A DNA stretch of 64,000 nt from Myxococcales bacterium (GTDB taxonomy: Bacteria; Myxococcota; Myxococcia; Myxococcales; UBA5297). This document shows, in pieces, positions 6,835-28,874 of this stretch. The stretch lies in NCBI GenBank assembly GCA_050942745.1, contig JBMNNX010000003.1:6767-70766 (forward strand), given 5' to 3'. A program made the translations under genes and the position numbers. The first letter of the stretch is position 1, and every line of letters starts with the position of its first letter. A model generated the notes under the pieces. It was not told where the DNA came from and did no database searches. It saw only the letters and a program-made list of their open reading frames with translations.

Positions 6835-6892
6835 CCGGCCGCCGCGGCGATGCGCCCGGCGCCGGATCGAGCACAGTCCTGGTTCTAAAGGT

Positions 6893-6925
6893 AGGGGCGC
6901 CCGCGGAGGCGCCCCTGCCTCTTGG
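6893..6925 (+). terminator. possible terminator hairpin after the pilin-like lipoprotein gene
   Basis: 9-bp perfect stem AGGGGCGCC / GGCGCCCCT with a 6-nt loop, followed by GCCTCTTGG. The T-tract is weak. Confidence 0.4.
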
Positions 6926-7103
6926 CGGTTCGGCCGCGGCCTGCCTGCCCGCCGGGCGGCGCTCCTCTACTTGCCCGCCTTTCTGGCTGCCGGCCGAGCG
7001 CACCGGAGCGCGCAGCCGCCGCGGGTGGGCGCGCCAGCATTCTGGAGGCTCTGCACTTCTCGTCTGTGCTGCCCGCAGCAAGCTTGACGGAGAGGAAGCT
7101 CCC

Positions 7104-8249
7104 ATGCCTCTCCAATCGAGAACCATCGCCTCGCTCGCTGTGCTGGCAGCCTTGCTCGTCGTCGCTCGCCCGGCGGCCGCGTTCGAGTCGCGAAGCGGCG
7201 ACACCGTGCACATCACCGCCGACCAGACCATCGACGACGACCTCTACGTCTTCGCCACCACGATCATCGTCGAGGGCACGATCCAGGGCGACCTGGTCGC
7301 CTTCGGCCAGAACATCACGGTGAGCGGCACGGTCGAGGACCTGGTCGCCGCGGGCTCGAACATCCGCGTCGACGGCACGGTCAACGGCTCGATGCGCGTC
7401 GCCGCCTCCGACGTCACCGTCGCCGGCCAGATCGCGCAGGACGCGGTCGTCGCCAGCGGCGACATCGACATCGAGCAGGGCGCGACGGTCGGCCGCGACG
7501 CCGTGCTCACCAGCGGCGAGCTGCGCATGGCGGGCCAGGTGACGCGCCGGCTCGTCGTCAGCGCGGGCTCGGTCGAGCTCGCCGGTGCGGTCGGCTCCAA
7601 CGCGCGCATCGAGTCGGGCGAGCTGACCGTCGCCCCCAGCGCCTCGGTCGGCGGCAACCTCGAGTACTCGGCCACCGACGAGGCCGAGATCGACCCCGGC
7701 GCGCGCATCGGCGGCGAGGTCGTGCGCCTGCCGTCGAAGAAGCGCGACGGCGTGGGCGCCTTCGCGGCCTTCCTCCTCATCTGGCTGCGCCTGCTCGTCG
7801 GCCTCTGCCTCGTCGGGCTCATCCTCGTCCTCGCGCTGCCCGAGCGCGCGCGCCGCACCCTACGCAGCTTCCGCTTCCGCCCCGGCGAGAGCCTGGCCGT
7901 CGGCCTCATCACCATGATCGTCGTGCCGATAGTCGCCCTCGCCGTCCTCGTCCTCGGCTTCTTCATCGGCGGCTGGTGGATCGCGCTGATGATCTTAGGC
8001 GCCTACCTCATCGTGCTCGCCTTCGCGCTGCCCGCAACCGGCCTGTGGATAGGCAGCGCCATCCTGCGGCGCCGCGACTGGACGCGCGGCAGGCTCGTCG
8101 GCGCCCTGGCCCTGGGGCTCTTCCTGCTGATGCTGGTGATCCTGCTGCCGTTCCTCGGGCCGGCCATCGCCATCGTGGCGACGATCTGGGGCCTGGGCGC
8201 GCTGCTGCGGGGCTTCGGCACGCGCACCGCGGGCGAGCTGCCGGCCTAG
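7104..8249 (+). CDS. membrane protein with N-terminal bactofilin-like (polymer-forming beta-helix) repeats and C-terminal multi-TM region
   Basis: Signal/anchor LAVLAALLVVARPAAA. Repeated G.V.GD/S.V pattern (VEGTIQGDLVAFGQNITVSGTVEDLVAAGSNIRVDGTVNGSMRVAASDVTVAGQI...). Four to five hydrophobic helices in the last ~170 aa. Confidence 0.65.
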   Translation: MPLQSRTIASLAVLAALLVVARPAAAFESRSGDTVHITADQTIDDDLYVFATTIIVEGTIQGDLVAFGQNITVSGTVEDLVAAGSNIRVDGTVNGSMRVAASDVTVAGQIAQDAVVASGDIDIEQGATVGRDAVLTSGELRMAGQVTRRLVVSAGSVELAGAVGSNARIESGELTVAPSASVGGNLEYSATDEAEIDPGARIGGEVVRLPSKKRDGVGAFAAFLLIWLRLLVGLCLVGLILVLALPERARRTLRSFRFRPGESLAVGLITMIVVPIVALAVLVLGFFIGGWWIALMILGAYLIVLAFALPATGLWIGSAILRRRDWTRGRLVGALALGLFLLMLVILLPFLGPAIAIVATIWGLGALLRGFGTRTAGELPA

Positions 8250-10711: not shown

Positions 10712-10959
10712 CTCCCGTCACTGCCTCCGGCGACCGGAGGCACGTCCCTCGAGCGCAGAGCGCCACGGGACATAGCTCATCAGCGAGCTTCGCGCGCGAG
10801 CCAGCACGGTGGAACCCGAGGTCCCCCTGCCCGTGTAGACAGGCTTCGCACCCTCATTGTATTGCCTCTCACCACCCGGCGAGGCGCTCCAACCGCTCCC
10901 CGACTTCGCGTCACGAGCACAGGACGGCTTCTCGATAATCGCCGCGGTTTGGGGGACTC

Positions 10960-14484: not shown

Positions 14485-15309
14485 TCAGCCGAGCGCCCGC
14501 TCGATGGCGGCGAACTGCGCGGGCGAGAGGTTCTCGGCGCGCTCCTTGGGATCGATCCCCGCGGCCTCGAGAGCGGCGGCGATGCGCTGGGGATCGCCGA
14601 GCGACTTGTCGGACTTGAGCGTGTTGAGCAACACCTTGCGCCGATGCGAGAAGGCGGCCTTCACGAGCCGCACGAACCTCGCGTGGTCGCCGATAGGCAC
14701 GCGCGGCTGCTCGCGGAGGTCGATGCGCGCGACCGCCGAGTCGACCTTCGGCGGCGGCAGGAAGACGCCCGCGGGCACCTCGAAGGCGAGCTCGACGTCG
14801 GCGTAGGCCTGAAGCAATACCGACAAGAGCCCGTAGTCCCTGCTGCCCGGGCCGGAGGCGATGCGCTGCGCGACCTCCTTTTGAAGAAGGAAGACCGCGC
14901 GGCGCACGTGCGCGCGCTGATCGAGCACCTCAAAGAGGATGGAGCTCGAGAGCTGGTACGGCAGGTTCCCGGCGACGACAGGCCGCTCGACGCCCGCGAG
15001 CTCGGCGAAGTCTACGGCCGCGGCGTTGGCCGCGACGACCTCGACGTTCGGCAGGTCGAGCTCCTTCTCGAGCACCGCCACGAGATCGCGATCGCGCTCG
15101 ACGGCCACCACCCGCGCGCCGGTGGCCGCGAGCTGGCGGGTGAGGTGGCCGAGGCCCGCGCCGAGCTCGACGACGGTGTCGCCCGGGCCGACGCCGCAGG
15201 TCTCGGCGATGCGGCTCAAGTAGTGCTCGTCGCCGAGGAAGTTCTGGCCCCAGTCCTTCTTGGGCCGCAGGCCGTACTTGCGAAGCAGCTCGCCGGGGGT
15301 CGCGCTCAT
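14485..15309 (-). CDS. rsmA: 16S rRNA (adenine1518/1519-N6)-dimethyltransferase
   Basis: MSATPGELLRKYGLRPKKDWGQNFL...VVELGAGLGHLT...GNLPYQLSS is the classic KsgA/RsmA pattern. The start overlaps the tsaD stop by 4 nt (ATGA). Confidence 0.9.
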   Translation of the reverse strand: MSATPGELLRKYGLRPKKDWGQNFLGDEHYLSRIAETCGVGPGDTVVELGAGLGHLTRQLAATGARVVAVERDRDLVAVLEKELDLPNVEVVAANAAAVDFAELAGVERPVVAGNLPYQLSSSILFEVLDQRAHVRRAVFLLQKEVAQRIASGPGSRDYGLLSVLLQAYADVELAFEVPAGVFLPPPKVDSAVARIDLREQPRVPIGDHARFVRLVKAAFSHRRKVLLNTLKSDKSLGDPQRIAAALEAAGIDPKERAENLSPAQFAAIERALG

Positions 15310-16316
15310 GCGGCGCCCCCGAGCCGCCACGCGGGGTCGGCGTTGAGCGCCATCCCGGCGCGCTCGCCGCGCTGGAAGGCATGAGTCCCGGCGACCGCGA
15401 TCATCGCGCCGTTGTCGGTGCACAGCCGCGGCGGCGGCAGGAACAGCTCTATCCCTTCGCCGGCGGCCCGCTCGGCGGCGAGGGCCCGCAGCCGGCTGTT
15501 GGCGGCGACGCCGCCGGAGAGCACGAGCCGGTGCAGCCAGAGCTTTCGGGCGGCCTTCATCGCCTTGCGCGTCAGCGGGTCGGCGACCGCCTCCTGGAAC
15601 GAGGCGCAGAGGTCGGCGAGCTGCTGGCCCTCGGGGTTGGGATGGGCGCGCAGCCAGGTGAGGACCGCGGTCTTGAGCCCGGAGAAGGAGAAGTCGAGCT
15701 CGGCGCCCTTGATCTGCGCGCGCGGGAAGCGGATGGCCTTCTTGTCGCCGGACTGGGCGAGATTGTCGATCTGGATGCCGCCGGGATAGGGCAGGCCGAG
15801 CATCTTGGCGACCTTGTCGTAGGCCTCGCCGGCCGCGTCGTCGCGAGTCTGGCCGACGAGCCGGTAGCGCCCGAAGCCCTCGACGGCGAACAGGCTGGTG
15901 TGGCCGCCGGAGACGACGAGCCCGAGGAACGGCGGCTCGGGCGGGTTGTCGGTGAGGCGGGCCGCGAGCAGGTGGCCTTCGAGGTGGTTGACGCCGACGA
16001 GCGGCTTGCCCGACAGCCAGGCAAGACCCTTGGCGGCCTGCACGCCGACGAGCAGCGCGCCAATGAGCCCCGGCCCGCTCGTCACGGCGATGGCGTCGAG
16101 GTCGGCGAGCCCCACGCCCGCCTTGGCGAGCGCCTCGTCGACCACCGGCAGCACCTGCATCACATGGTTGCGGGAGGCGAGCTCGGGGACGACACCGCCC
16201 CAGCGCCGGTGGACCTCGATCTGCGACGAGACGACGTCCGAGAGCGCGACCCGCCCGTCGCGCACCACGGCAGCGGCGGTCTCGTCGCAGGACGTCTCGA
16301 TTCCGAGTACGAGCAC
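15306..16316 (-). CDS. tsaD: tRNA N6-adenosine threonylcarbamoyltransferase
   Basis: MLVLGIETSCDETAAAVV...HLEGHLLA...SGGHT...SGGVAANSRLR is the TsaD/Kae1/Gcp signature. 336 aa. Confidence 0.95.
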   Translation of the reverse strand: MLVLGIETSCDETAAAVVRDGRVALSDVVSSQIEVHRRWGGVVPELASRNHVMQVLPVVDEALAKAGVGLADLDAIAVTSGPGLIGALLVGVQAAKGLAWLSGKPLVGVNHLEGHLLAARLTDNPPEPPFLGLVVSGGHTSLFAVEGFGRYRLVGQTRDDAAGEAYDKVAKMLGLPYPGGIQIDNLAQSGDKKAIRFPRAQIKGAELDFSFSGLKTAVLTWLRAHPNPEGQQLADLCASFQEAVADPLTRKAMKAARKLWLHRLVLSGGVAANSRLRALAAERAAGEGIELFLPPPRLCTDNGAMIAVAGTHAFQRGERAGMALNADPAWRLGGAA

Positions 16317-16612
16317 GTTGTCTCCTGAAGAGCGGGCATCCGGCGTGGACAGACCGCGCGCAGGTGCTGGTCCCGACCGGATCGGCGCGGGCGTTCGAGC
16401 CCGAGGGCCGGCGAGGTTCTACCTCAATCGAAAACACGCGTCGCGACCGGGCACCGCCCGGTCGAACCTCGGGCTTCACGCTCCGAGGAGCCGGCCGTCG
16501 GGGAGGGCGGAGCTGGAGCGGCGCCGTCCATCCGAAACACGCGTCGAGCGTCCGCCGTCCATCCAAGTGGCGCCAATCGAGAGCCTTCGGCGAGCTTCGC
16601 CCGGAACAAACT

Positions 16613-16647
16613 CTCGACCCTCGACCCTCGACCCTCGACCGTCGCCC
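16613..16647. repeat. heptanucleotide microsatellite (CTCGACC)x4 plus one degenerate unit
   Basis: ctcgaccctcgaccctcgaccctcgaccgtcgccc, directly abutting the stop codon (16648-16650) of the response-regulator gene. Confidence 0.75.
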
Positions 16648-19600
16648 TCACCTCAAATCCTTGAGGATGATCTTCACCTCCGCGGCAAAGTCCCCGTTCG
16701 GATCGAGCGCGAGGTAGCGCTGATAGGCGCGGGCGGCATCCTTGTTGCGGCCCATCATCTGATAAGCCGTCCCCAGGGCGACGTGGCCGCGGGCGTGGTC
16801 GGGAGCCCTCGCCAGGCCCTGCTCGAGAAACGGGATGGCCGTCTTGGGCGAGGTCTCGACCAGCGAGAGGCCGAGCCCGAGCAAGGCCTCGGTTCCCGTG
16901 GGATTGACCTTCAGCGCCTTCTTGAAGTCGGCGACCGCGAGTTTGAGCTTGTTGCGCGAGAAGTGCTTGTTCCCCGACTTGACGTACCGGGCGTACTCGA
17001 CCTCGGGGTCGTCGCCGGGGGCCGGCTTCTCCTTCTTCGCGCCTTCGTCGCCGCTGCCCTGAGGCTCGGTTGCCTGCGCCGTGGCGCTCGCGTCGGCGGG
17101 CTCGCCCGCATCGGCAGGCTCGGTCGCCGCGACCGGCGACGTGTCGGCGGGAGGCGTCGCAGTCGAGTCGACGACGGCGGGCGCATCGCCACCGGCGCGC
17201 GCGGAATCCGCGCCAGGATCGGCCTTCGGCGGCTCGTCCGACGCGGGATCGCTCGGCAGTGCAGGTTGCCCGTCCTCGACGGCCACGGGCGCGCTCTTGC
17301 TTCCGAGCAACTTCCAGGCTGCGAACCCGCCCACCGCCAGCACGAGCAGGACGACGACGACGGGCCAGCGGCGCTTCGGCGCCAGGCCGGCTCGGGCCCA
17401 CTCCTCCTCGATGGAGGCCGTGTCATCGACCTGCGCGGGCAAGGCCTCGAAGGGCGCGGACGCGATGGGCGACGGCGCGATGGGCGCGGGATCGAACGAA
17501 CGCGCCGGCTCGACCGGCGGCGTGGGGCCAGAGCCTTCAACGAAGGAGATGTAGGCGCCAGACGAGGGCAGCGACGGCTTCTCGAGCTCGCGCAACGGCT
17601 CGGCGGCCGCCCCGCCGAAGACCGGAGCCCGAAGCGGCTCCTGCTCGGCGACGCCCGGATCGGCGACCTCGGTCAGCGGCAACGGCGCGGGCTGCGCCAT
17701 CGCCTCCGTGAGCGGGATGGCCGCCACCGGCGCCGCGGGCGCCGGCTCGGCGGGCGCCGGCTGCGCAGGCTCGGGCGCGGCGAGCGGCGCGGGGCTCATC
17801 TCCGCCGCCGGCTTCGCCCTGCCGAAGAAGATGTCGGCCGGGGTCGGGGCGCGGCCGAGGCCAGCGGCGGGCTCGTCGGCGCCGGCTGCCGCAGGCAGCT
17901 CAAGCGGATCGGGGGGCGCGAGCCACGAGGCCCAGCCCTCGGTCGTCGGCACCGAGCGCCTGGCCGGCGCCGAGGCCTGGGCGGCCGCTTCGGCCGGTTC
18001 GCCCGGTTCGGCCGCCTCGGCCGCTTCGCCCGGTTCGGCGCCCGCCGGCGTGGGCTCGGCTCCGGGCACCGGCGTCTTCGCCAACTCGTCGCTGCCGCGC
18101 GGCTCGAAGAAGAAGACCTGGGCGCGCTTCGGCTCGCCGGGCGGCTCCTCGGCCGGGCTCGCGGCAGCCGGCTGCTCGGCCGGGGAGGCCGGCTGCTCGG
18201 CCGGCGGCGGGGAGGCCGGCTCCTCCTTCGGACCGCTGAACCAGACGCTGCCCTGCGCATCTCCGGCCGTCGCCTCGCCCACATTCCCAGGAGCGACCGG
18301 CGCGCTGCCGGCATCCGGCTCGCTGGGGGCGGGCTCGTTCCCCTGCGCAGGCGCTGGAGAATCGGCCTGCGGCGCCGCGGAGTCGCCCGCGGGCGCGGCC
18401 CAGGCCGAACCGCCCTCCGGCGCGCTTTCCGGCGGCGCGGGCGAGAAGGCCGCAGCCGAAGGCTCGGCCGCTGGCTCTCCCTCGGGGGCGGCCCACTGGG
18501 CCGGATGCGAAGCCTCGATCGAGGGCCCCTCTGCCGCGTCCGCCGGGGCCTCCGGCGCCGCGGCGGCCACCGCCTGCTGAACTGCAGTGTCCGTCGAGGG
18601 CTCGCCTTCCGGGGAGGCCCATTGAGCTGGCGCCGGCGGCTCGGCTCTGGGCGCTTCGGCCGTGTCCTGCGCCTGCGCGCCCGGCGCGGGCTCGCCCCGC
18701 TCGCCGGGCTGTGGCTCGGCCAGCAGCCACTGCTCGATGTCCTTGGGCTTGGGCTCCTTGCGCGGCTTGCTCTCGCCGACCTCGCGGATGAGCCCCTCGA
18801 AGTACAGCTTGCTGACGATGCCGAGCGCGGCGAGGTCGTCAAAGTCCGAATCGTCGATGAGCTGCTCGAGCGAGCGCTGGCCGTCAAAGAGCCGCAGCAG
18901 GCCGTTTATCTCGTCGGGGATCTCCGCGAGCCGCTCGGCGAGTTGCCGGTAGTCGATCTCGAAGACGGTGCTCAGCGGGGGAAGCTGCTCGAGCATCCGG
19001 CCCCACTCGTCGATGCGGCGCATGCCCTCCATCAGCAGGCCCTGCGTCGACATCTGCAAGCGGTCCTCGCGCTCGTGCGGCCCGAACTCGAGCTCGAAGG
19101 TGCCCTCGCTCGCGTTGAGCAGCCGGTAGAAGGCGTTCTCGCCCTTCAGGCGCCCGAACTCGGCGTCTACGATCTTGCCGTCGCGAAAGTAGATGCGCGC
19201 GTCCTTGCCGCCGACCTTCAGGCGCATCGTGCCGGTCTTGCGGCCCATCTCGAAGGTCTGCACCAGATCGACGACGCCCATGTCGCCGAGGTTGCCCGAG
19301 AACGCCTTGCCCTCCTTGCGCTCGCGCTCCATGCGCTCTTTCTCGCGCTTGGAGAGGAGGATCTTCACGCGGGCGACGATCTCTTTGATGTAGATGGGCT
19401 TGGTCAGGTAGTCCTCGACGCCCAACTCGAGGCCCTTGAGCTTGTGCTCGACCGACTTCTGCGCGGTCAGGAAGATGAACGGCAGGCCCTTGAACCGCTC
19501 GTCCTCCTTGAGCCGGCGGCACAGCTCGTAGCCGTCGATCCCCGGCAGCTTGGTGTCGCTGATGACCAGGTCCGGGCTACTGATGGCCACCTTCTGTAGC

Positions 19601-19716
19601 GCGTCGTCGCCGCTGACCGCGGTGGTGACCGAAAAGCCCGCCTTCTTCAGCGAGACCTCCATCACCCGAAGGCTCTTAGGGTCGCCGTCTACCAGCAAGA
19701 GATGCTGCTTGGCCAC
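16648..19716 (-). CDS. response regulator receiver - DUF4388/PATAN - Pro/Ala/Glu-rich linker - TM - TPR protein
   Basis: ORF 16648..19752. The GTG at 19716 has a GGAG 8 nt upstream. Receiver motifs [30 protein letters not shown]-like [27 protein letters not shown]...[13 protein letters not shown]. About 550 aa of low complexity. One TM helix ([18 protein letters not shown]). C-terminal TPRs. Confidence 0.85.
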
Positions 19717-19908
19717 GGTGGTGCTCCAGTCGAGAAAGGCGCCCCAGCGCACGGGCGCCCGCGCTGCCTGCCGGTCGCGTCGGCGGCCAAAAAAGCCTCG
19801 TAATGCGACCGGTTATCTTTCACGGAGGGCCCGGTTGGCGTCAAGCGTTCGCCCGGCTACGATGACCTCCGCTCAATAGCCTGTCCGCCCCCCAGGAGGG
19901 CCTGCGAG

Positions 19909-20238
19909 ATGACCGATCTTCGCCGCCACAAGCGCAAGCCTCTCGCCGTCGAATTCCGCTGCCGCGACGAGTCGGGAGCCGGCACCCTGCAGTTCGGCAG
20001 TGGCGACCTGTCGGCCGGGGGCGCCTTCCTGCGCTCGGACCTGCTGCTCGAGCAGGGCGAGCGGCTCTGGATTGAGGTCGAGCTGCCGGGCCGCGAGCGC
20101 CCGGTGCGCGCCGAGGCGCGCGTCGCCTGGGTGCGCCGCTTCCCCACCGCCGGCCAGGCGGGCGGGATGGGCATCGAGTTCCTGGGCATGACCGAGGAGG
20201 ATCGGCGCGCGGTCGAGTCGTTCGTCGAGGGGGCCTGA
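19909..20238 (+). CDS. PilZ domain protein (putative c-di-GMP receptor)
   Basis: 109 aa. RxxxR (RRHKR) and D-x-S-x-x-G (DLSAGG) motifs at the canonical spacing. AGGAGGG RBS upstream. Confidence 0.8.
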   Translation: MTDLRRHKRKPLAVEFRCRDESGAGTLQFGSGDLSAGGAFLRSDLLLEQGERLWIEVELPGRERPVRAEARVAWVRRFPTAGQAGGMGIEFLGMTEEDRRAVESFVEGA

Positions 20239-20258
20239 GCCGGGCGCGGCCCTTCGCA

Positions 20259-23200
20259 TCACTTGAAGAAGCCTCCGCCGCCCTTCTTGCGCCGCATCTC
20301 GATGAGCCGCAGCTCGGTCGATGCCTCGGCGTTCTTCGGGTTGACGGCGACCGCGGCGCGGAAAAACTTCTCGGCCCTGGCGAGGTCGTTCTCGACCCGA
20401 GCCATGACGCCGAGCGTGTAGTGCGCCCGGTCGCACTCGCGGTCGAGCCGCAGCGCCTGCTCGAGCTTGGCCTTTATCTGCGGCATGTTCGAGCGCTGCG
20501 CGGGGTCGAGGTACATCGCCCAGGCCTGCATGGCGAGGTGGAGCGCCTTGTTGCTCTCGGCGAAGGCCTTGCCGAAGAGCTCGGCGGCGGCGGCGAACTC
20601 CTTCTTCTTGAGATGCAGGTCGGCCTGCTTGAGCGTCACCTCGAGGCTCGAGGCCTTGGGCGCCTGGGACTGAGACGGGGCGGCGAGCCGCATCAGGTAC
20701 ATGCTGCGCTTGGCGTCGTCGTACAGCGTCTCGTACGCCTCGGTCAGCGCGGCGAAGATGTCCTTCACCTTGGGGGTGAGGTTCGCGAGCGCCGACGGCA
20801 GGCGGTCCGGGTGGAAGACCTTCACCTGCGAGAAGTAGGCGGCCTTGACCTGCTCGCCGTTCGCTTCGCGCTGCAGGCCGAGGCGCGTGAACAGGTCCTC
20901 GCGGGCGATGCCGATGTGCCGCGCCTCGATCTTCTTGGCGAGCGCGATCTCTTCGGGGCTCAGGGTCGGCTGCTTGGCGGGCGCCGCAGGCGGCGAGGCT
21001 GCGCTCGGGGCGCTGGAAGGCTTCTCGACGACGCCGCCCTCAACAGCCGCCTGCCGCGGCAGCACGCCGAGGTTGTCGAAAGCGCGACGCAGCAGGCGCT
21101 GGCGCCGGGCGCGCACGTCCTTGGGGTCAGTCACGTCTTCACCATCGCCATAGAAGGGTTCATCCGCGGGCACGGAGAACTCGTCCTCGGGTGACAAAGC
21201 TGCATTCCAGCCGCCCTCGATAGCCGGCGGCGTCTTCGGTCTGCCCCGGTGACTGACGGCCTCGCCCTCTGGCGCCTCCATCCAGTCCTCGCCCGGGCCC
21301 TGCGTCGCAGCCGGCTGGTGCGGCGAAGGGAAGTCGCGCGGGGTCGGGGCCTCGAAGTCCGTCTTCCCTGCCATCGCTTCCAGCACCGAGGCGATTCCGC
21401 CCGGCTCAACCAGCCCGCCGCGCGACGGCTCGAACACCGGCGGCACCTCGAGGATCGGGGCGGGCGCGGGCTGCTCTGGGGTGACCGGCGGCGGCCGCAC
21501 CGGATGAAGAACGGGCGGCGCCACCGCCGGCGCGGACGGGAAGAACGGAATCGGAGGAGGCTCGAACTCCACCGAGTCGTAGTCCAGAGGCTCGTTCGAC
21601 GACCAGGACCGGTCCGCCGCGGGAACGGGCGGGGGGCACGACGGGGGCTGGTCGTCGAAGACCATGTCCATCAAGCTCGGGCCCTCGGGGGCCGCCTCGA
21701 CCGGCGACGGGATCGAAGGAGGAGTGGCGGACCCGACGACCGAGTCCCATGAGCTGACGACCGGGGGCTCGTCGATGAGCGCTGCGCCCCCCAGCTCGAT
21801 CGCCTCTTCCGGCGACAGATCGATCTCTGGGGTCGCCTCCATCTCCACTGGGCGAGGCGGCTCGGCCTCGCCGGCAGGGAGCTGAGCTGCGAGGTCGCGG
21901 GCTTGCTGCAGGCGGGCCTGGCGCTCTGCTTCGGCCGCAAGCCTGGCCGCGAAGAGGCGCTCGTACTCCTGAGGGTCCCAGGCCTCCGTCCGCTCGCCAA
22001 TCTCGCGAGCGGCGTCGAGGAGAGCCTCCTCGGAGCCATGCGCCGGGACCTCCTGCGACAGGTCCAGCTCCAGCTCGATAGGCTCGGACTCGCCCGCGGG
22101 CGCCTCTTCGATCAGATCGTCCTCGCCGAGGGCCGCCGGAGAATCGAGGCCCGAATCGAGCGAGAGCCCCGCGGTGGCGAGCTCCATCTCCTCGGCCGCG
22201 ACCGCGATGCCGGTCAGCTCCACGGACGCAGGTCCCGACGGCAAAGTGCCCGGTCGCTCGATCAGACGTTCATCAGCGAGCTGCTTCTCGAGCTGCTCTG
22301 CGCGCGCGCGCTCCTGCTCGATCTGCGCTCCGAGCGCCGCGAGCTCCGAGACAGCCGTCGCTTCGGCCGCGCCGCTGCGGCAGGCGCGCAGCGAGGCCTC
22401 CTCCGCGTCCTGGATCCTCTGCTCGAGCTCCCGCGCGCCCGCCTCCGCCTCGATCCGGGCGGCCTCGTCCTGATGCTGGGCCTGCCGCAGCGCGGCGAGC
22501 CTCTCTTCGAGCGCTCGGACCCGCTCGCGCTCCTCGCGCAGCCGCGCCTCGGCCTGGGCGCGCGCGCCTTCGATCGCCTGCGCAGATCCCGAAGCGCGAG
22601 CGAGCCGTTCGCGCTCGAGCGCCTCTTGCTCGAGCCGGCGTCGGGCCTCGTCGGCGTTCCGAAGTTGACCCTCGAGATCCCCGCGGACCTTTTCGGAGTG
22701 TGCGCGCGCCGCCTGTTCGGCCTCGCGCCGCGCCTGGGCCTCGACGATCTCGGCGGCGAGCGCGTCGGCGCGCTCGCGCTCCTCGCGCAGCTTCTCCTCG
22801 AGCTCGGCGCGCAGCGCTTCGATGATCGAACGCTGCTCTTGTTCGGCCTGCTCGCGGGCGCGCCGCTCCCTCTCTTCGGCCTCCTTCTCGAGCCGCTCGC
22901 GCAACTCGTCGGCGGCCTTCAGCTTCTCGGCGAGCTCGTCGCGGGCACGCTCGGCCTCGGCCCGCGCCGCCTCTTCGGCCTCGCGGTGGGCCTTGGCCTC
23001 CGCGATTTCGGCGGCGAGCGCCTCGGCGCGCTCGCGCTCCTCGCGCAGCTTCTCCTCGAGCTCCGCGCGCAGCGAATCGGCGCGGTCGCGCCCTTCGCCT
23101 TCGGCCTGCTCGCGGGCGCGCCGCTCCCGCTCCTCGGCCTCCTTCTCGAGCCGCTCGCGCAGCTCGTCGGCGGCCTTCAGCTTCTCGGCGAGCTCGTCGC

Positions 23201-26200
23201 GCGAACGCTCGGCCTCGGCCCGCGCCGCCTCCTCAGCCTCGCGGCGGGCCTTCGCCTCCGCGACCTCGGCGGCGAGCGCCTCGGCGCGCTCGCGCTCCTC
23301 GCGCAGCCTCTCCTCGAGCTCGGCGCGCAGCGAATCGGCGCGGTCGCGCCCTTCGCCTTCGGCCTGCTCGCGGGCGCGCCGCTCCCTCTCTTCGGCCTCC
23401 TTCTCGAGCCGCTCGCGCAGCTCGTCGGCGGCCTTCAGCTTCTCGGCGAGCTCGTCGCGCGAACGCTCGGCCTCGGCCCGCGCCGCCTCTTCCGCCTCGC
23501 GGCGGGCCTTGGCCTCCGCGACCTCGGCGGCGAGCGCATCGGCGCGCGCGCGTTCCTCGAGCAGCCTCTCCTCGAGCTCGGCGCCCAGCGCTTCTGCACT
23601 CTTGCGGCCCTCGTCCTCGGCCTGCTCGCGGGCGCGCCGCTCCCGCTCCTCGGCCTCCTGAGCGAGCCGCTCGCACGCTTCGGTGACTTGCGCGAGCTTC
23701 GCGCCCAGCTCCTCGCGCGCCTTCTCCGCCTCGGCGCGCGCGGCCTCTTCGGATTCCCGCTGCGCCGCGGCCTCGCCGCGCTCCCGGTCGAGCGCCTCGG
23801 CGCGCTCGGCCTGCTCGCGCAGCCGCACCTCGAGCTCCGCTCGGAGGTGATCGGAGCTCTGGCGCGCCTCTTCCTCTGCGCGCTCGCGCGCCTGGCGCTC
23901 CTTCTCCCGCGCCTCGGCCTCGAGCTGGCGCAGCGCCTCCTCGGCCTCGCGAACCTTCGCCTCGAGCTCCTCGCGGGCCCGCGCCGCCTCGGCGCCCGCG
24001 GCGGCGGCGGCGGCGCAGGCCTCGCGCTCCTCGGCGATCTCCGCCTCGAGCGCCTCGACCCACTCGGCCTGCTCGCGGAGCTGCTCTTCCTTCTCGGCGC
24101 GGATCTGCTCGGCGCTCTTGCGCGAGTCCTCTTCGGCCTTCTCGCGCGCCCGCTGCTCCTTCTCGCGCGCCTCCTCGAGCGCCCGCTTGCGCTGCTCGGC
24201 GAGCTCGGCCAGCCGCGCCTCGAGCCCGGCGCAGGCCTCGGCGAGCTTCGCGCGCTCCGACTCTTCGGCCTCGCGCGCGGCGATGGCCTTCTCGAGCGCG
24301 GCGTCGAGCTCTTCGACCCGCGCTCGCTCGCGGGCGATAGCCTCCTGCGCCTCGGCGCGCTGTCGCTCTTCGGCCTCGCGCAGCTCGCGGTCGCGCTGTT
24401 CCTGGCGCTCGTTCGCCGCGCGCGCCGCGTCGGCCTCTTCGCGCCGCAGCGACTCTTCGGCCTCGCGGACCTTTGCCTCGAGCTCCTCGCGCGCCCGCGC
24501 GAGCTCGCCGCGGAGCCGCTCGGCCTCGCTGCGCGCCTGCTCGAGCCCGGTGACGCGAAGCTCGAGAGCGGCAGCGCGCTCCTTCTCCCGCGCGAGCTGC
24601 TCTTCGCCCTCGAGCCGGGCCTTTTCGACGGCCTCGTGGCAAAGCTGCTCGGCGCGCTCGCGCGCCTGCTGCTCGCAAAGCTTCGACTGCTCCTCGAGCC
24701 GAGCCCGCGCTTCGGCAGCGGCGCGCACCCTGGCCTCGAGCTCGGCGCACTCCTTCTCGGCCTCGGCGCGGGCGGCCTCGTCCGCGCTCCACACCGCCTC
24801 GAGCTCGGCGCTGCGCCGCTCGAGCTCGTCGGCGCGGGCGCGCTCCTCGGCGACGAGCTGCTCGGCCGCGGCGGCGATCTCCGCGGCCTCCCTCGCGGCG
24901 CGCTCTTGCGCCTCGCAGAGGACCGCCTGAACAGCCCCGCCCTCGTCGCCGGCCTCCACGCGCTGGGCAGCCGACTGCAGCTCCTGCTCGGCCTCGCGCG
25001 CCAGCTCGAGCGCCGCGTCCCGGTCGGCCTCGGCGCGCCGGCGCGCCTCTTCTGCCCGAGCGCGCTCGGCCTCGGCGCCGGCGAGCTTCCTTTCGAGCTC
25101 GTCGGCGCGCTGGCGCTCCTCCTCGAGCCGCTCGCTTGCGCGCTGCTCGGCCTCGGCGCGGGCCGCTTCGATCAGCGCGCGCGCCTCCTGCTCGGCCTGC
25201 GCGAGCCGCTCCTCGGCGGCCCGCTGCGCCTCCGCGGCGGCCTTCTCGCGAGCCTGACGCGCCTCTTCGAGCGCCCTGTCGGCGCGCGCCTCGGCCTCGC
25301 GGCGCTCCTCCTCGAGCCGCTCGCGCTCGCGCAGCTCCTCGGCCTGACGCGCCTCCTCCTCTTCGAGCCGCGCGCACAGCTCGCCGCGGCGCCGCCGCAG
25401 CTCCTGCTCTTGGGACTGCGCCTGCGACTCGATCTCCCGGGCCAAGGCCTCCGCGGCCTCGCGCGCCTGCTGCTCGAGCTCGCGGGCGCGCCGCTCGGCC
25501 CGCTCGCGGACCTCCTCGGTCGGATCGATCGCTTCGACGCCGCCCAGCGCCATGAGCGCCGCGGCCAGCCAACGCACGCGGGCCGGGTCTACCCCGCGCT
25601 CGATGAGATCCTCGGGGCCGCCGCCCGCGCGCCAGCTCTCGAGCGCCTCGCGCTCGCGCGGCTCGAGCCGCAGCGTCGAGGCGAGCTGCGCGAAGCGGGC
25701 GCCGAGCCGCAAGACCCGCGGGCCGAGCGCGGCGAGCATCGCGGCGACGTAAGCCTGCGCGCCCGGCGACGCGAGCGCCTCGGCGATGCAGCCGTCGGCG
25801 CCGTCCGCGTCGAGCGCCAGCCCCGAGGTCCACCCCGGAGGCTCTTCGGACCGAAACTCGAAGCGCCCGTCGGCAAGGCGCCCCAGCGCGCGCAGGTGCT
25901 CGAAGAGCTGCAGCCGCATCCCCTCGCGCACCCCGTCCTCGTCGAGCGCGCCCATCTCGCAGAGCACCTCGGGCAGCGGCCTGCCGCGCTCGAGCTGCGG
26001 CAGCGCGCGATCGAGGGTCTCGAGATCGATGAGCCCGCTCTGGACGAGCACCTGGCCGAGCGGGCGGAAGCCGACCGCGACGCGCGCGCCCGCCGGCACG
26101 CCCTGGCGCATGAAGAGCCGGCTGGTGCCGCCGCTCCCGTCGATGCGCAGCACGCCCGTCGCGCCGCGCTCTCGGGCGGACAGCAATAGCTCGGCGAGCG

Positions 26201-26249
26201 GGTGCTCGCTCAGCCGTCCGTGGGAAAGTTCAGGGTCGCCGGGGCGCAT
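20259..26249 (-). CDS. giant DUF4388/PATAN - coiled-coil - Pro-rich - J-domain - TPR protein (1996 aa)
   Basis: N-terminus LSEHPLAELLLSARERGATGVLRIDG...LFMRQGVPAGA (PATAN-like). About 1000 aa of E/A/R/L heptad-rich sequence containing 86-aa repeats. Pro-rich segment. J domain with HPD (YFSQVKVFHPDRL...EAYETLYDDAKR). TPR-like C-terminus. Confidence 0.85.
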   Translation of the reverse strand: MRPGDPELSHGRLSEHPLAELLLSARERGATGVLRIDGSGGTSRLFMRQGVPAGARVAVGFRPLGQVLVQSGLIDLETLDRALPQLERGRPLPEVLCEMGALDEDGVREGMRLQLFEHLRALGRLADGRFEFRSEEPPGWTSGLALDADGADGCIAEALASPGAQAYVAAMLAALGPRVLRLGARFAQLASTLRLEPREREALESWRAGGGPEDLIERGVDPARVRWLAAALMALGGVEAIDPTEEVRERAERRARELEQQAREAAEALAREIESQAQSQEQELRRRRGELCARLEEEEARQAEELRERERLEEERREAEARADRALEEARQAREKAAAEAQRAAEERLAQAEQEARALIEAARAEAEQRASERLEEERQRADELERKLAGAEAERARAEEARRRAEADRDAALELAREAEQELQSAAQRVEAGDEGGAVQAVLCEAQERAAREAAEIAAAAEQLVAEERARADELERRSAELEAVWSADEAARAEAEKECAELEARVRAAAEARARLEEQSKLCEQQARERAEQLCHEAVEKARLEGEEQLAREKERAAALELRVTGLEQARSEAERLRGELARAREELEAKVREAEESLRREEADAARAANERQEQRDRELREAEERQRAEAQEAIARERARVEELDAALEKAIAAREAEESERAKLAEACAGLEARLAELAEQRKRALEEAREKEQRAREKAEEDSRKSAEQIRAEKEEQLREQAEWVEALEAEIAEEREACAAAAAAGAEAARAREELEAKVREAEEALRQLEAEAREKERQARERAEEEARQSSDHLRAELEVRLREQAERAEALDRERGEAAAQRESEEAARAEAEKAREELGAKLAQVTEACERLAQEAEERERRAREQAEDEGRKSAEALGAELEERLLEERARADALAAEVAEAKARREAEEAARAEAERSRDELAEKLKAADELRERLEKEAEERERRAREQAEGEGRDRADSLRAELEERLREERERAEALAAEVAEAKARREAEEAARAEAERSRDELAEKLKAADELRERLEKEAEERERRAREQAEGEGRDRADSLRAELEEKLREERERAEALAAEIAEAKAHREAEEAARAEAERARDELAEKLKAADELRERLEKEAEERERRAREQAEQEQRSIIEALRAELEEKLREERERADALAAEIVEAQARREAEQAARAHSEKVRGDLEGQLRNADEARRRLEQEALERERLARASGSAQAIEGARAQAEARLREERERVRALEERLAALRQAQHQDEAARIEAEAGARELEQRIQDAEEASLRACRSGAAEATAVSELAALGAQIEQERARAEQLEKQLADERLIERPGTLPSGPASVELTGIAVAAEEMELATAGLSLDSGLDSPAALGEDDLIEEAPAGESEPIELELDLSQEVPAHGSEEALLDAAREIGERTEAWDPQEYERLFAARLAAEAERQARLQQARDLAAQLPAGEAEPPRPVEMEATPEIDLSPEEAIELGGAALIDEPPVVSSWDSVVGSATPPSIPSPVEAAPEGPSLMDMVFDDQPPSCPPPVPAADRSWSSNEPLDYDSVEFEPPPIPFFPSAPAVAPPVLHPVRPPPVTPEQPAPAPILEVPPVFEPSRGGLVEPGGIASVLEAMAGKTDFEAPTPRDFPSPHQPAATQGPGEDWMEAPEGEAVSHRGRPKTPPAIEGGWNAALSPEDEFSVPADEPFYGDGEDVTDPKDVRARRQRLLRRAFDNLGVLPRQAAVEGGVVEKPSSAPSAASPPAAPAKQPTLSPEEIALAKKIEARHIGIAREDLFTRLGLQREANGEQVKAAYFSQVKVFHPDRLPSALANLTPKVKDIFAALTEAYETLYDDAKRSMYLMRLAAPSQSQAPKASSLEVTLKQADLHLKKKEFAAAAELFGKAFAESNKALHLAMQAWAMYLDPAQRSNMPQIKAKLEQALRLDRECDRAHYTLGVMARVENDLARAEKFFRAAVAVNPKNAEASTELRLIEMRRKKGGGGFFK
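22845..23618 (-). repeat. three near-identical 258-bp (86-aa) tandem repeats inside the coiled-coil gene
   Basis: The GGCCTGCTCGCGGGCGCGCCGCTCC unit recurs at 22845, 23103, 23361 and 23619. The protein unit is RRAREQAEGEGRDRADSLRAELEERLREERERAEALAAEVAEAKARREAEEAARAEAERSRDELAEKLKAADELRERLEKEAEERE. More diverged copies flank it over roughly 22.5-25.4 kb. Confidence 0.85.
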
Positions 26250-26303: not shown

Positions 26304-26786
26304 CTACCGGGCGCGAAAAGGCTGTTGTCGAATCGCCTCGTAGGTCGCGATCCCGACCGCGGTGGAGAGGTTGAGGCTGCGCCGCTCGGGCAGCATGGGG
26401 ATGCCGACGGTCTGCTCCGGGAAGGCCTCGACGAAGGAAGCGGGCAGGCCTTCGGGCTCGGAGCCGAACACGAGGTGATCGCCGGGCCGAAACTCGGCCT
26501 CCCACAGCGAGCGCTCGGCGCGGGCGCTGAAGAGGTGGCGCCGGGCCGCGCCGTGCTCGGCGAGGTAGTCGTCGAGCGTCGGGTAGTAGCGCTGGAAGAC
26601 CTTGTCCCAGTAGTCGAGCCCGGCGCGCCGCAGATCCTTCTGGGCGATGGAGAAGCCGAGCGGGCCGACCAGGTGCAGCCGCGCCCCGGTCACCGCGCAC
26701 AGGCGCGCCACGTTGCCGGTATTCGGCGGGATCTGGGGCTCGACGAGCACCAGGTTGAGCGGAGGGTCGATTCTGGGCAGGAACAC
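26304..26786 (-). CDS. trmL: tRNA (cytidine/uridine-2'-O)-methyltransferase, SpoU/TrmL type
   Basis: LNLVLVEPQIPPNTGNVARLCAVTGARLHLVGPLGF...LRRAGLDYW...MLPERRSLNLSTAVGIATYEA matches E. coli TrmL end to end. The start is ambiguous: GTG at 26786 gives 160 aa, ATG at 26849 gives 181 aa. Confidence 0.8.
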   Translation of the reverse strand: MFLPRIDPPLNLVLVEPQIPPNTGNVARLCAVTGARLHLVGPLGFSIAQKDLRRAGLDYWDKVFQRYYPTLDDYLAEHGAARRHLFSARAERSLWEAEFRPGDHLVFGSEPEGLPASFVEAFPEQTVGIPMLPERRSLNLSTAVGIATYEAIRQQPFRAR

Positions 26787-26847
26787 GGCCGCGCGGCGCT
26801 CCTCGGGTTTTCGGTCAGGGCACGGGCGGCCGGTATAATGCGCGGCC

Positions 26848-27201
26848 ATGCCGCTCATCGTCCACAATGTCACCCGCTCCACAGTCCTCGGCGACAAGGT
26901 GGAGGTCGCCTCGTCGAGCCTGGCGCGAGCCAAGGGCCTGCTCGGCCGCCGCGGCCTCGCCGAGGGCGAGGGGCTGCACCTCGTGCCCTGCAACTCGATC
27001 CACATGTTCTTCATGCGCTTTCCGATCGACGTCGCCTTCCTCGATAGCGAAGGGCGGGTCGTGCGAGCGGTGCACACGATCAAGCCCTGGCGCGCCACCC
27101 GGATGTACCTCGACGCCTATTCGGCGCTCGAGTTGCCGGCCGGGACGCTGCAGCGCACCGGCACGCAGGAGGGCGACCAGCTCAAGCTGGATCCGTGCTG
27201 A
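26848..27201 (+). CDS. DUF192 family protein
   Basis: 117 aa. ...ARAKGLLGRRGLAEGEGLHLVPCNSIHMFFMRFPIDVAFLD...ALELPAG is the typical DUF192 (COG1430) pattern. Confidence 0.8.
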   Translation: MPLIVHNVTRSTVLGDKVEVASSSLARAKGLLGRRGLAEGEGLHLVPCNSIHMFFMRFPIDVAFLDSEGRVVRAVHTIKPWRATRMYLDAYSALELPAGTLQRTGTQEGDQLKLDPC

Positions 27202-27300
27202 GCGCGCGGCGCGGGCGGCTTCGCGCACCTGCCTGGCTGGCAAGCGGCCTTTCGGGCAGCGACCTTGAACCGAGTCGGACTTGAGCTAGGATTTCCGGCC

Positions 27301-28098
27301 ATGCGACCTTCAGCCTGCCTCGGGGCGCTGCTCGCGCTCCTTCTCCCGTCGGTGGCCGCCGCCCAGTTCGAAGGGCTCGACCTCACCGAGGATGCTCCCG
27401 AGCAGACGCCCGAGCAGCCGCAAACGGCTCCGGAGGCGCCAACGCCACCTTTGGATATCGACGAGCCCGCGGCCAGCTCCGAGCCGCGGCTGAGCGAGCT
27501 CGACATCACCTCCGAGGACCGGGTCAAGAGCGTGCAGCGGCGCGGCTTTCTCAAGCGCAACCGCTTCGACCTGACGCCCATGGCCTTCGTGCAGCTCAAC
27601 GACGCGTACTACCCCAAGTTCGGCCCCGGAGCGCGCGCCTCCTACCACCCGCACGAGAGCTTCGGCCTGGGCGTGCGCTTCCTTCAATACAACCTGGTCC
27701 CGACCGACAACGTGCGCCTCGCCAAGCGCCAGCTCCAGTCGCGCCTGCCCTCGGTGCTCCCGAAGATGTCGTTCGCGCTCGACCTTATCTGGTCGCCCAT
27801 CTACGGCAAGATCAGCATCTTCAACGCCATCCGGCACTTCGACCTGTTCGTGATCGGCGGCGCCGGGGCGATCTTCACCCAGACCTCCGACGCCGACGGG
27901 CCGCACCTCTCGACGCACATCGGCATCGGTCAGCGCTTCTCCATCAACGACTTCCTGGCCGTCGACGTCTCGATCATCGAGGCCATCTACTCGGACCGCC
28001 CGGGTGGCGCCAACAAAGCGGTCCTGCAGAACGTGCTCACCCTCAACGCCGGGCTCAGCGTGTTCCTGCCCTTCTCCTTCGACTACCAGGAGCCGTGA
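27301..28098 (+). CDS. outer-membrane beta-barrel domain protein, GltB/GltA (NfsA/NfsB)-like paralogue 1
   Basis: Signal peptide MRPSACLGALLALLLPSVAAA. Shares RFDLTP...Y.P.....G...SYH..ES.G.G..F and WSPIYGKISIF...HFDLFVIGGAG with the next gene. Terminal ...FSFDYQEP. Confidence 0.7.
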   Translation: MRPSACLGALLALLLPSVAAAQFEGLDLTEDAPEQTPEQPQTAPEAPTPPLDIDEPAASSEPRLSELDITSEDRVKSVQRRGFLKRNRFDLTPMAFVQLNDAYYPKFGPGARASYHPHESFGLGVRFLQYNLVPTDNVRLAKRQLQSRLPSVLPKMSFALDLIWSPIYGKISIFNAIRHFDLFVIGGAGAIFTQTSDADGPHLSTHIGIGQRFSINDFLAVDVSIIEAIYSDRPGGANKAVLQNVLTLNAGLSVFLPFSFDYQEP

Positions 28099-28127
28099 CC
28101 GTGCGCCGCTCGCCCAAGCTCGAGGCC

Positions 28128-28871
28128 ATGACCCGTCGAAACCTCCCCGCGCTGCTCGCCCTGCTCGCGGCGCTCGCGCTTCCCGGCAGCGCGCTCGGCG
28201 CACAGCCAGCCGCCCAGGAGCCGGAGAACGAAGGCGAGAAGGCCGCACCCATCGATCTCGAGGACAAGATGCCGCCGGTGTCGGGCCGGCTGTTCCTCAA
28301 GGACGGCCGCTTCGAGGTCTCGCCGACCGTCTCGGTCAGCCTCGCGGACCCCTTCTTCCAGAAGCTCAGCGGCGGGTTGAAGCTCAACTACCACATCGTC
28401 GAGTCCATCTCGGTCGGCCTGTTCGCCAACTACTCGCTCAACATGCCCTCGAGCTCGGTCAGCGTCTGCAAGACCGACGGGAGCTGCAAAGGTCCCGAGC
28501 TCAAAGAGCTCACCGACGTGCCGGGCAAGCTGGGCCTGATGGCCGGGTTCGACGTCGCCTGGGCGCCGATTTACGGCAAGTTCAGCGTGCTGGCCGAGAA
28601 GGTGCTGCACTTTGACCTCGCCTTCATCGGCGGGCTGAGCACCATCCAGTACCAGGCGCCCGGCGGCACCAACACCTTCGCCATCGCCTGGCACTTCGGC
28701 GTCGGCCAGCGCTACTACATCACCCCGAGCCTGATGCTGCGCGTGGAGCTGCGCGACTACATCTACAACGCTCAGACCGTCAAGCTCGGCACCTCCTCGA
28801 GCAAGCTGCAGAACCAGATCATGTTCGAGCTCGGCCTCTCCTACTTCGCCGGCTCCGGCCACGAGGAATAA
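28128..28871 (+). CDS. outer-membrane beta-barrel domain protein, GltB/GltA (NfsA/NfsB)-like paralogue 2
   Basis: Clean signal peptide MTRRNLPALLALLAALALPGSALG. An alternative GTG at 28095 overlaps the upstream stop as GTGA. Paralogous motifs RFEVSP..., WAPIYGKFSVL...HFDLAFIGGLS. Confidence 0.7.
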   Translation: MTRRNLPALLALLAALALPGSALGAQPAAQEPENEGEKAAPIDLEDKMPPVSGRLFLKDGRFEVSPTVSVSLADPFFQKLSGGLKLNYHIVESISVGLFANYSLNMPSSSVSVCKTDGSCKGPELKELTDVPGKLGLMAGFDVAWAPIYGKFSVLAEKVLHFDLAFIGGLSTIQYQAPGGTNTFAIAWHFGVGQRYYITPSLMLRVELRDYIYNAQTVKLGTSSSKLQNQIMFELGLSYFAGSGHEE

Positions 28872-28874
28872 CCG

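Follow-up and report, generated by a model that had tools for sequence, protein, structure and literature searches.

What can a response regulator, a PilZ protein and a J-domain protein have in common when their genes stand side by side? The question is raised by a stretch of 64,000 nucleotides from a Myxococcales bacterium (assembly GCA_050942745.1, contig JBMNNX010000003.1, positions 6,767 to 70,766), hereafter the window. Two of the three adjacent genes code for proteins with a PATAN domain (DUF4388): RR-PATAN, a membrane-anchored response regulator (RR), and PATAN-J, which carries a J domain. The gene of a stand-alone PilZ protein lies between them. A reading made earlier from the sequence only had combined the three into one signalling module. 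The domain calls behind it (receiver, PATAN, PilZ, J domain and tetratricopeptide repeat, TPR) all pass curated hidden Markov model thresholds, and the genes are recovered at the following positions when open reading frames (ORFs) are picked by third-position G+C in this DNA of about 70% G+C.

16648-19752, minus strand: RR-PATAN gene, longest ORF (Pfam Response_reg, DUF4388 and TPR)
19909-20238, plus strand: stand-alone PilZ gene, 109 aa (Pfam PilZ match)
20259-26249, minus strand: PATAN-J gene, 1996 aa (Pfam and NCBIfam; orthologues lie 5' of RR-PATAN in clade A loci, see below)

The PilZ gene is divergent from RR-PATAN, with a spacer of 192 bp, and convergent with PATAN-J, with a gap of 20 bp. 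The answer favoured here, at a little under an even chance, is that the locus holds a conserved two-protein module of Myxococcales plus an accessory receptor of cyclic di-guanosine monophosphate (c-di-GMP), a system that would respond to c-di-GMP and phosphorylation and target Hsp70 to a membrane site.

The first support comes from 95 related loci. Nine marker proteins were mapped on the first 91 of them by tblastn, L092-L095 were read from gene tables, and a contig scan with the PilZ protein found three loci. Our own PATAN-J profile (hmmsearch) missed the Glu/Ala-rich giants of this family, probably through its bias filter, and tblastn was used instead. A neighbour-joining tree of the RR-PATAN N-terminus divides the RR proteins into clades A to C. 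Clade A comprises Archangium, Cystobacter, Corallococcus/Myxococcus-like and Anaeromyxobacter sequences, with the gene order spoU, PATAN-J, PilZ (where present), RR-PATAN, tsaD, ksgA. In every clade A locus with enough upstream DNA, PATAN-J is the co-oriented gene directly 5' of RR-PATAN; because of this adjacency and co-orientation a functional link between PATAN-J and RR-PATAN is supported, and by gene order the two are a conserved pair and old operon partners. In Anaeromyxobacter paludicola PATAN-J, RR-PATAN, tsaD and ksgA share one orientation and are separated by gaps of about 100, 11 and 20 bp only, and for this reason the arrangement there looks like an ancestral operon. Of about 40 clade A loci, about 23 have PilZ in the gap between PATAN-J and RR-PATAN, several of these being near-identical to one another. 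The whole trio is not co-conserved; the PATAN pair is, with PilZ beside it in part of the clade. The conserved neighbours in the window are:

14485-15300, minus strand: ksgA/rsmA (Pfam; conserved 3' partner of RR-PATAN, synteny in clades A and B)
15306-16316, minus strand: tsaD (Pfam; conserved 3' partner of RR-PATAN, synteny in clades A and B)
26304-27098, minus strand: SpoU/TrmH-family methylase gene, spoU (Pfam; conserved 5' neighbour of PATAN-J, synteny in 14 loci)

The gap between RR-PATAN and tsaD is unusually long in the window (about 330 bp, against 3-100 bp in orthologous loci) and holds a 7 bp tandem repeat, CTCGACC in 5.4 copies, at the 3' end of RR-PATAN (16613-16649). A promoter and terminator scan of 16300-20500 gave no signal above shuffled sequence. 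A gene for GTP-dependent phosphoenolpyruvate carboxykinase lies no more than about 15 kb from the PATAN genes in the window (2015-3883, minus strand) and again in A. paludicola (L005, 19881-21362), which hints at a wider conserved synteny.

RR-PATAN probably starts at the GTG at 19716, since the N-termini of its orthologues align there, and would then have 1022 aa. Its features are, from N- to C-terminus:

19363-19698, minus strand: receiver (REC) domain, aa 19-130 (Response_reg 87.7 bits, cut-off 30.2), with the phospho-acceptor Asp in LVISD
18781-19299, minus strand: PATAN module with C-terminal helical subdomain, aa ~152-324 (DUF4388), without helical insertion
17365-18717, minus strand: low-complexity cytoplasmic linker of ~450 aa, by composition (Ala 25%, Pro 20%, Glu 12%)
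17305-17361, minus strand: single transmembrane (TM) helix, aa 797-817, with KRR just before it (Kyte-Doolittle 2.46)
16693-16974, minus strand: C-terminal TPR repeats, predicted to be periplasmic (TPR_1, TPR_2, TPR_11, TPR_19)

Counted from the 19716 start, the receiver residues are D54 (in LVISD), T84 (in FLT) and K106 (in TKP); among 20 orthologues each of them is either invariant or kept in at least 90%. With the Pfam match and this Asp/Thr/Lys set, the sequence is that of an intact two-component receiver. DUF4388/PATAN reaches 84.6 bits (cut-off 25) over aa 152-250. The linker, for which about 550 aa had been given before, is about 450 aa long by composition; in orthologues, most of which have a TM helix at the equivalent position, its length ranges between about 100 and 450 aa; the positive-inside rule would place the N-terminus in the cytoplasm. 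TPR_1 matches aa 927-1020 with 41.4 bits, and the TPR region is 30-40% identical to Myxococcaceae-like orthologues (tblastn). Over the first 330 aa identity is about 60-70% across the family, with 430 tblastn-confirmed metagenome stretches. The protein-homologue lists, obtained with queries of 332-340 aa, hold proteins below about 600 aa, and full-length orthologues of 800-1000 aa appear in them only as cluster members (P0353, P0370); that M. xanthus is missing from these lists is no evidence that it lacks the gene. The architecture of REC, PATAN, linker, TM helix and periplasmic tail is common to all three RR clades.

PATAN-J is composed of the following parts:

25524-26222, minus strand: N-terminal PATAN module, aa 10-242 (AlphaFold2 (AF2) model with a predicted local distance difference test score, pLDDT, of 94.8; hhalign to RR-PATAN)
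25890-26072, minus strand: MshEN_N/GSPII-type four-helix insertion, aa ~60-120, RPLGQVLVQSGLIDLETLDRALPQ ... RPLPEVLCEMGALDEDGVREGMRLQ (NF053729, Foldseek and phmmer)
22050-25514, minus strand: Glu/Ala/Arg-rich alpha-helical rod, aa 246-1400 (composition and periodicity)
22705-23837, minus strand: 258 bp (86 aa) tandem repeat within the rod, 4.4 copies, 87% matches (Tandem Repeats Finder score 1518)
20910-22049, minus strand: Pro-rich low-complexity region, aa 1401-1780 (Pro 17%, Ala 14%, Glu 11%)
20697-20897, minus strand: J domain, aa 1785-1851 (DnaJ 40.4 bits vs cut-off 27.8), HPD at aa 1813-1815
20280-20642, minus strand: C-terminal TPR repeats, cytoplasmic (TPR_1 and TPR_2 weak; consensus-TPR matches in the Protein Data Bank, PDB)

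The J domain is matched by PDB J domains with E down to 2e-9 and occurs in all PATAN-J orthologues for which this part of the sequence is available. The protein is not a canonical DnaJ (type I): TIGR02349 gives 36.7 bits vs a cut-off of 377, and the J domain alone matches. The TPR matches are stronger in orthologues than in the window.

The rod consists mainly of Glu (26%), Ala (24%), Arg (17%) and Leu (9%), with about 50% charged and about 12% strongly hydrophobic residues. It shows a hydrophobic (heptad) periodicity of 3.5 residues (z = 9.4) and an enrichment of opposite charges at i,i+4 (z = 13.6). Described earlier as a coiled coil of about 1000 aa, aa 246-1400 are a charged helical rod that may be either a coiled coil or a single alpha-helix, and that would be about 170 nm long if fully helical, at 0.15 nm per residue. 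The proposed very long filamentous scaffold is a lineage-specific trait: PATAN-J orthologues range from 606 aa in Anaeromyxobacter paludicola to about 2000 aa, and in the window the rod is enlarged by the recent 258 bp repeat. On account of this repeat and these lengths the rod is a fast-evolving spacer of lineage-variable length rather than a conserved scaffold. Every contig of the closest relatives (L092-L095 and L001, PilZ 94% identical) stops within PATAN-J; its Glu/Ala/Arg repeat seems to interrupt the assembly of short reads, and the gene is therefore probably truncated or split in many public annotations.

An hhalign comparison shows the PATAN modules of the two proteins to be homologous (173 columns, probability 95%, E = 3e-8); the insertion is missing in RR-PATAN. 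In PATAN-J, DUF4388/PATAN (PF14332) scores 43.5 bits vs a cut-off of 25 over aa 10-143. A search with aa 1-249 gave relatives among 1.84 billion representative proteins, 870 representatives at E ≤ 1e-3. The AF2 model of this head (60 relatives as input) has a beta-sheet core, a four-helix insertion and a helical C-terminal subdomain. No PDB structure was found for the PATAN core by fold (Foldseek) or sequence; the insertion alone has matches. It superposes on the N-domain of MshE with c-di-GMP (5HTL) at a root-mean-square deviation of 1.0 Å over 55 columns with 31% identity (Foldseek), and further Foldseek matches are the GSPII-B domain of Thermus PilF with c-di-GMP and the PilB(N)-PilZ complex 7LKM. 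The match of the PATAN-J head to PilF with phmmer has E = 1.1e-8. As modelled, the helical insertion in the PATAN domain of PATAN-J is an MshEN/GSPII-type four-helix module. Such a setting has precedents: MshEN motifs within PATAN domains have been catalogued for M. xanthus before, e.g. MXAN_3211 (Wang et al. 2016 supplement, PMC5013675), and the co-occurrence of GspE_N and PATAN was noted earlier by Han et al.

NF053729, the NCBIfam model of the MshE-related c-di-GMP motif (cut-off 38 bits), describes tandem 24-residue motifs with Arg1, Gly3 and Gln24. Each of six Anaeromyxobacter-like orthologues from loci that lack PilZ gives a match, at 31.8-45.6 bits, and two exceed the cut-off (L036, 45.6; L049, 45.1); none of the three tested PilZ-bearing Myxococcaceae-like orthologues gives one. 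In a fourth PilZ-bearing locus, L032, the c-di-GMP motif is visibly degenerate in the alignment, the only evidence used there. The window has a partly degenerate MshEN copy alongside PilZ. Among 61 diverse representatives of the PATAN-J family, 47 match NF053729 at E ≤ 1e-5 and at least 34 carry a J domain. The motif in the PATAN domain of the orthologues makes a c-di-GMP input into the PATAN-J/RR-PATAN module plausible, and this input, which the sequence-only reading had drawn from PilZ, thereby gains independent support. Since the MshEN motif decays in PilZ-bearing lineages, the distribution fits a c-di-GMP sensing that is native to the module and has been partly replaced by PilZ.

The PilZ protein of the window matches Pfam PilZ (PF07238) with 61.1 bits vs a cut-off of 22.5, and stays just below the cut-off of the myxobacterial PilZ-like paralogue family TIGR02266 (67.0 vs 68.7 bits), a label that JGI gives to many of its orthologues. 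RRHKR and DLSAGG are intact, as had been read from the sequence, and RRxxR, D[LV]SxGG and a strongly conserved core are kept in 23 of 23 locus-linked orthologues. Its AF2 model (pLDDT 83) superposes on c-di-GMP-bound PilZ structures with template modelling (TM) scores of 0.7-0.83 (Foldseek); the best matches are MotI (0.83) and, at about 0.7, YcgR, Alg44, PA0012 and MapZ, with the Xanthomonas PilZ a poorer match (0.54). By motifs and predicted fold it is a canonical PilZ of the c-di-GMP-binding type. Its sequence comparisons point to clear purifying selection, and by its distribution it is a lineage-restricted, well-maintained insert.

In the favoured model, of which we infer every interaction, the c-di-GMP binding, the DnaK partner and the cellular output, RR-PATAN would be an inner-membrane regulator with REC and PATAN in the cytoplasm, a flexible linker, one TM helix and periplasmic TPRs. 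It would mark a site at the membrane or envelope and engage a partner via PATAN, depending on the phosphorylation of the receiver. PATAN-J would be a J-domain co-chaperone without client-binding domains of the DnaJ type, brought to the RR-PATAN site through its homologous PATAN head, where its J domain may switch on one of many DnaK paralogues locally, which in turn may assemble, remodel or stabilise a client complex. The head of PATAN-J would be gated by c-di-GMP, ancestrally in cis through the MshEN-like insertion, and in the window lineage in trans as well, or in trans alone, through the stand-alone PilZ, which might dock on the insertion as Xanthomonas PilZ does on the equivalent domain of PilB, or else on RR-PATAN. 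A bolder version, which we hold to be improbable, would make PATAN-J a widespread undescribed class of c-di-GMP-gated co-chaperones that target Hsp70 to a site marked by RR-PATAN; in one lineage the sensing would have been handed from the built-in MshEN to a PilZ docking on the decayed module, and the window would be an intermediate with both. No description of the PATAN-J protein family was found in the literature searched, and the earlier remark that no described system has this arrangement appears correct for the open literature searched.

Several observations weigh against the favoured model. No gene for a DnaK, a histidine kinase or a diguanylate cyclase is found within the window, and the operon partners tsaD, ksgA and spoU code for RNA-modification enzymes, which say nothing on the output. 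The insertion of the window scores 31.8-34 bits with NF053729 (aa 63-109), i.e. below the threshold; in its first motif the Arg is displaced (RPLG), with Arg1 and Gln24 not in register, and in the second a Pro takes the place of Gly3 (RPLPEV...Q). The Corallococcus-like locus L004 has neither an MshEN motif match nor PilZ, and the complementary distribution of MshEN and PilZ goes back to few events, perhaps two or three. PlpA of M. xanthus possesses intact PilZ motifs, yet shows no c-di-GMP binding in vitro (PMC8316039); PilZ motifs are therefore no guarantee of c-di-GMP binding. Finally, PilZ is missing from about 17 clade A loci with enough upstream DNA (about 40%), namely all Anaeromyxobacter-like loci and the Corallococcus/Myxococcus-like group (L004, L010, L012, L015), and it lies on the strand opposite to the PATAN genes in 22 of 23 loci. 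Because of this orientation and these absences the PATAN pair must be taken to work without PilZ. L011 (9632-9964) is the sole locus with PilZ on the same strand as the PATAN genes, which implies a local inversion or an independent insertion.

PilZ may accordingly be seen as a passenger, a paralogous gene of the TIGR02266 type that landed in the gap of the PATAN operon and serves another target, with the PATAN pair as the only module. The opposite strand (flipped in L011) and the intact pair in the PilZ-less loci, those of the Corallococcus/Myxococcus-like group included, speak for a passenger, and so does the size of the paralogue pool: myxobacteria have about 24 PilZ genes, most of them without a phenotype when singly deleted, and in M. 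xanthus single deletion of 20 of the 24 leads to no motility or developmental phenotype (PMC8316039). A passenger agrees less well with a gene that, where present, always occupies exactly the same slot, that is under clear purifying selection, and that is kept across lineages in which RR-PATAN is only 64-71% identical; moreover, the neighbouring J-protein family has a c-di-GMP-type module of its own, which decays where PilZ appears. On balance a passenger is considered rather unlikely.

Known systems offer partial parallels to the favoured model. The PatA-type RRs of cyanobacteria (PixG, PixE, LsiR, PatA) likewise combine PATAN with a receiver, and PATAN is their protein-binding output; some PATAN domains carry a helical insertion, whereas RR-PATAN has none. 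The order is reversed in RR-PATAN (REC at 19-130, then PATAN at 152-250), which places it outside the PatA type, and it differs further in its long linker, TM helix and periplasmic TPRs and in the absence of a chemosensory cluster; no che genes are found within the window. With the MshEN/GSPII receptors (V. cholerae MshE, T. thermophilus PilF, NfrB) the insertion of PATAN-J shares the four-helix fold and the tandem LGxxLLxxGLL...L...L..Q pattern, and some orthologues pass NCBI's curated model. In MshE and PilF the domain stands at the N-terminus of a secretion ATPase, whereas the putative receptor in PATAN-J lies inside the PATAN domain of a J-protein.

The closest precedent for docking is the PilZ-PilB(N)-FimX complex of Xanthomonas citri (7LKM), in which a stand-alone PilZ docks on a GSPII/MshEN-type domain; both folds are present in the window locus. 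Unlike that system, the window has a canonical PilZ and no ATPase or FimX-like partner nearby. The Xanthomonas PilZ is not known to carry the c-di-GMP motifs. MapZ, which binds CheR1, and MotI/DgrA, which binds MotA, are small canonical PilZ adaptors and the best structural matches to the window PilZ (TM scores 0.74-0.83). Their partners are chemotaxis and flagellar proteins, and in sequence they are only 17-22% identical to the window PilZ, so that the fold alone is common. A coupling of PilZ-type receptors to the Hsp70 system is known from M. xanthus, where PilZ domains occur fused to DnaK and to DnaJ, and where the stand-alone PilZ protein CdbS acts together with DnaK paralogues (PMC8316039, PMC10313047). 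In that system, with CsdK1 and CsdK2, PilZ either is fused to DnaK or is itself the client of a chaperone, and the system acts on the organisation of the chromosome during heat stress; in the window, by contrast, PilZ is a separate gene beside PATAN-J, with no DnaK gene nearby.

PlpA (MXAN_2528) of M. xanthus is, like the window PilZ, a stand-alone PilZ with intact motifs, and regulates reversals; plpA lies about ten genes from gltKBAC as counted by locus-tag number alone. Orthology of the two is not supported: the peptides from the published deletion and check primers 2528_A to 2528_H match neither the PilZ family nor the flanking PATAN genes, and neither primer peptides nor primer DNA, the only PlpA sequence used, matched any of the PilZ and RR homologues or any of the loci. 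The Corallococcus/Myxococcus-like locus has no PilZ in the slot where the window has one.

On the cellular output, PATAN binds PilB1 and PilC as an output domain in Synechocystis (bioRxiv 10.1101/2021.06.11.447907), and in M. xanthus PATAN proteins co-occur with the type IV pilus (T4P) regulator SgmX (PMC11580455). By analogy, this suggests a role in pili or polarity. The gene neighbourhoods of the other RR clades lead elsewhere. Clade B keeps tsaD and ksgA and has no adjacent J-protein gene; in one of its loci, L078 (7391-9281), a Pal-like OmpA-family gene and a CpoB/YbgF-like TPR_6 gene precede RR-PATAN, tsaD and ksgA, neighbours not seen in the other clade B loci. Clade C has neither tsaD nor an adjacent J gene and is syntenic with SPOR, SPFH and Ser/Thr-kinase genes (L041, L043-L048, L052-L055, L059, L061, L067, L068, L071, L072, L074, L075, L086, L088, L089, L091). 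This REC-PATAN-TM group, with N-termini 57-62% identical, has a conserved neighbourhood of its own, i.e. a SPOR-domain protein, a protein of about 400 aa, an SPFH/Band-7 protein with a zinc ribbon and, downstream, an alpha/beta hydrolase; a zinc-ribbon Ser/Thr kinase directly upstream of the RR gene is seen only in L043. The clade C neighbourhood suggests an envelope- or division-linked role for the RR family.

The module may then act on the organisation of the envelope, the division site or the pole, or on membrane proteostasis, rather than on motility or reversals; RR-PATAN would serve as a landmark that spans the envelope, and the J-protein would aid the assembly or quality control of an envelope or divisome complex. 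The bitopic RR-PATAN with periplasmic TPRs, an architecture kept in all three clades, is consistent with such a role, as are the SPOR, SPFH/Band-7 and Ser/Thr-kinase genes beside the clade C homologue in about 20 loci, the Pal- and CpoB-like genes ahead of one clade B RR gene, and the housekeeping character of the operon partners tsaD, ksgA and spoU. PatA of Anabaena reportedly interacts with the divisome, to judge from the title of a paper. The neighbourhood evidence comes, however, from clades without the J-protein partner, Pal and CpoB occur in a single locus, and the only experimentally defined PATAN partners are the T4P motor proteins (bioRxiv 10.1101/2021.06.11.447907), with the SgmX co-occurrence in M. 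xanthus (PMC11580455) pointing in the same direction. An envelope role in place of a motility role is regarded as unlikely.

On the other side of PATAN-J the window continues with spoU, a DUF192 gene and genes of the gliding machinery:

26839-27201: DUF192 gene, between spoU and the gltB-like gene
27265-30872, plus strand: two OMP_myx_plus barrels (gltB-like, gltA-like) and a GltC equivalog (925.9 bits, cut-off 450)

The Glt/Nfs-like neighbours noted earlier are thus real, and by these matches they are Glt. They begin 1 kb beyond PATAN-J, and this proximity, with the strong GltC match, is what would make the three genes an accessory of the Agl-Glt gliding machine. Yet spoU and DUF192 intervene, the glt genes are on the other strand, and tblastn found no match to GltA, GltB or GltC in any of the 95 related loci. 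Many of these do not reach far enough to reveal an adjacency, among them the contigs of the closest relatives, which stop in the PATAN-J repeat. In the four loci with 10 kb on the spoU side (L004, L006, L011, L022), spoU is followed by DUF192, PP2C and sugar-nucleotide genes, and no Glt. Membership in Agl-Glt and a conserved linkage were both rejected, Glt having been found in none of these related loci although adjacent in the window. The link between the PATAN locus and the Glt genes is probably chance, and an accessory role in gliding is highly improbable. Nothing in the analysis ties the module to gliding, reversals or sporulation, and the 20 of 24 M. xanthus PilZ deletions without phenotype (PMC8316039) lend that tie no support. 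No gltK-like ORF is evident between the DUF192 gene and the gltB-like gene. In M. xanthus, gltKBAC is MXAN_2538-41, and MXAN_2536 beside gltK is reported as a porin or lipoprotein; the glt cluster of the window lies in a different neighbourhood.

Beyond the locus the window carries mixed housekeeping genes. At 4873-8249 (plus strand) a 653 aa ORF, which has a match to the type IV pilin PilA family at its C-terminal end (aa 537-596), is followed by a 494 aa ORF with a marginal bactofilin match (27.7 bits vs 27.9). An RCC1-repeat beta-propeller protein with seven RCC1_2 repeats and a DUF4215 segment, and after it a protein with four DUF7151 repeats, are encoded at 10939-13536 (plus strand). At 42215-44161 (minus strand) an OST-HTH/LOTUS domain is fused to an NYN ribonuclease domain.

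The myxobacterial repertoire includes more than 12 PATAN proteins (M. xanthus), about 24 PilZ, up to 22 MshEN-type proteins, 15 DnaK and 16 J-proteins, very few of which have an assigned role or a known partner. Into this repertoire the locus brings a conserved pairing of a J-protein with a membrane response regulator, with a common PATAN head and two alternative routes for c-di-GMP. Should the favoured model fail, a clean annotation of three hypothetical genes is left, together with a warning about a probably incidental Glt adjacency. If it is true, a second messenger and a phosphorelay would direct Hsp70 to one site of the cell, PATAN domains would have a function outside cyanobacteria, and the locus would be a natural example of sensing moved from a built-in domain to a separate adaptor protein.

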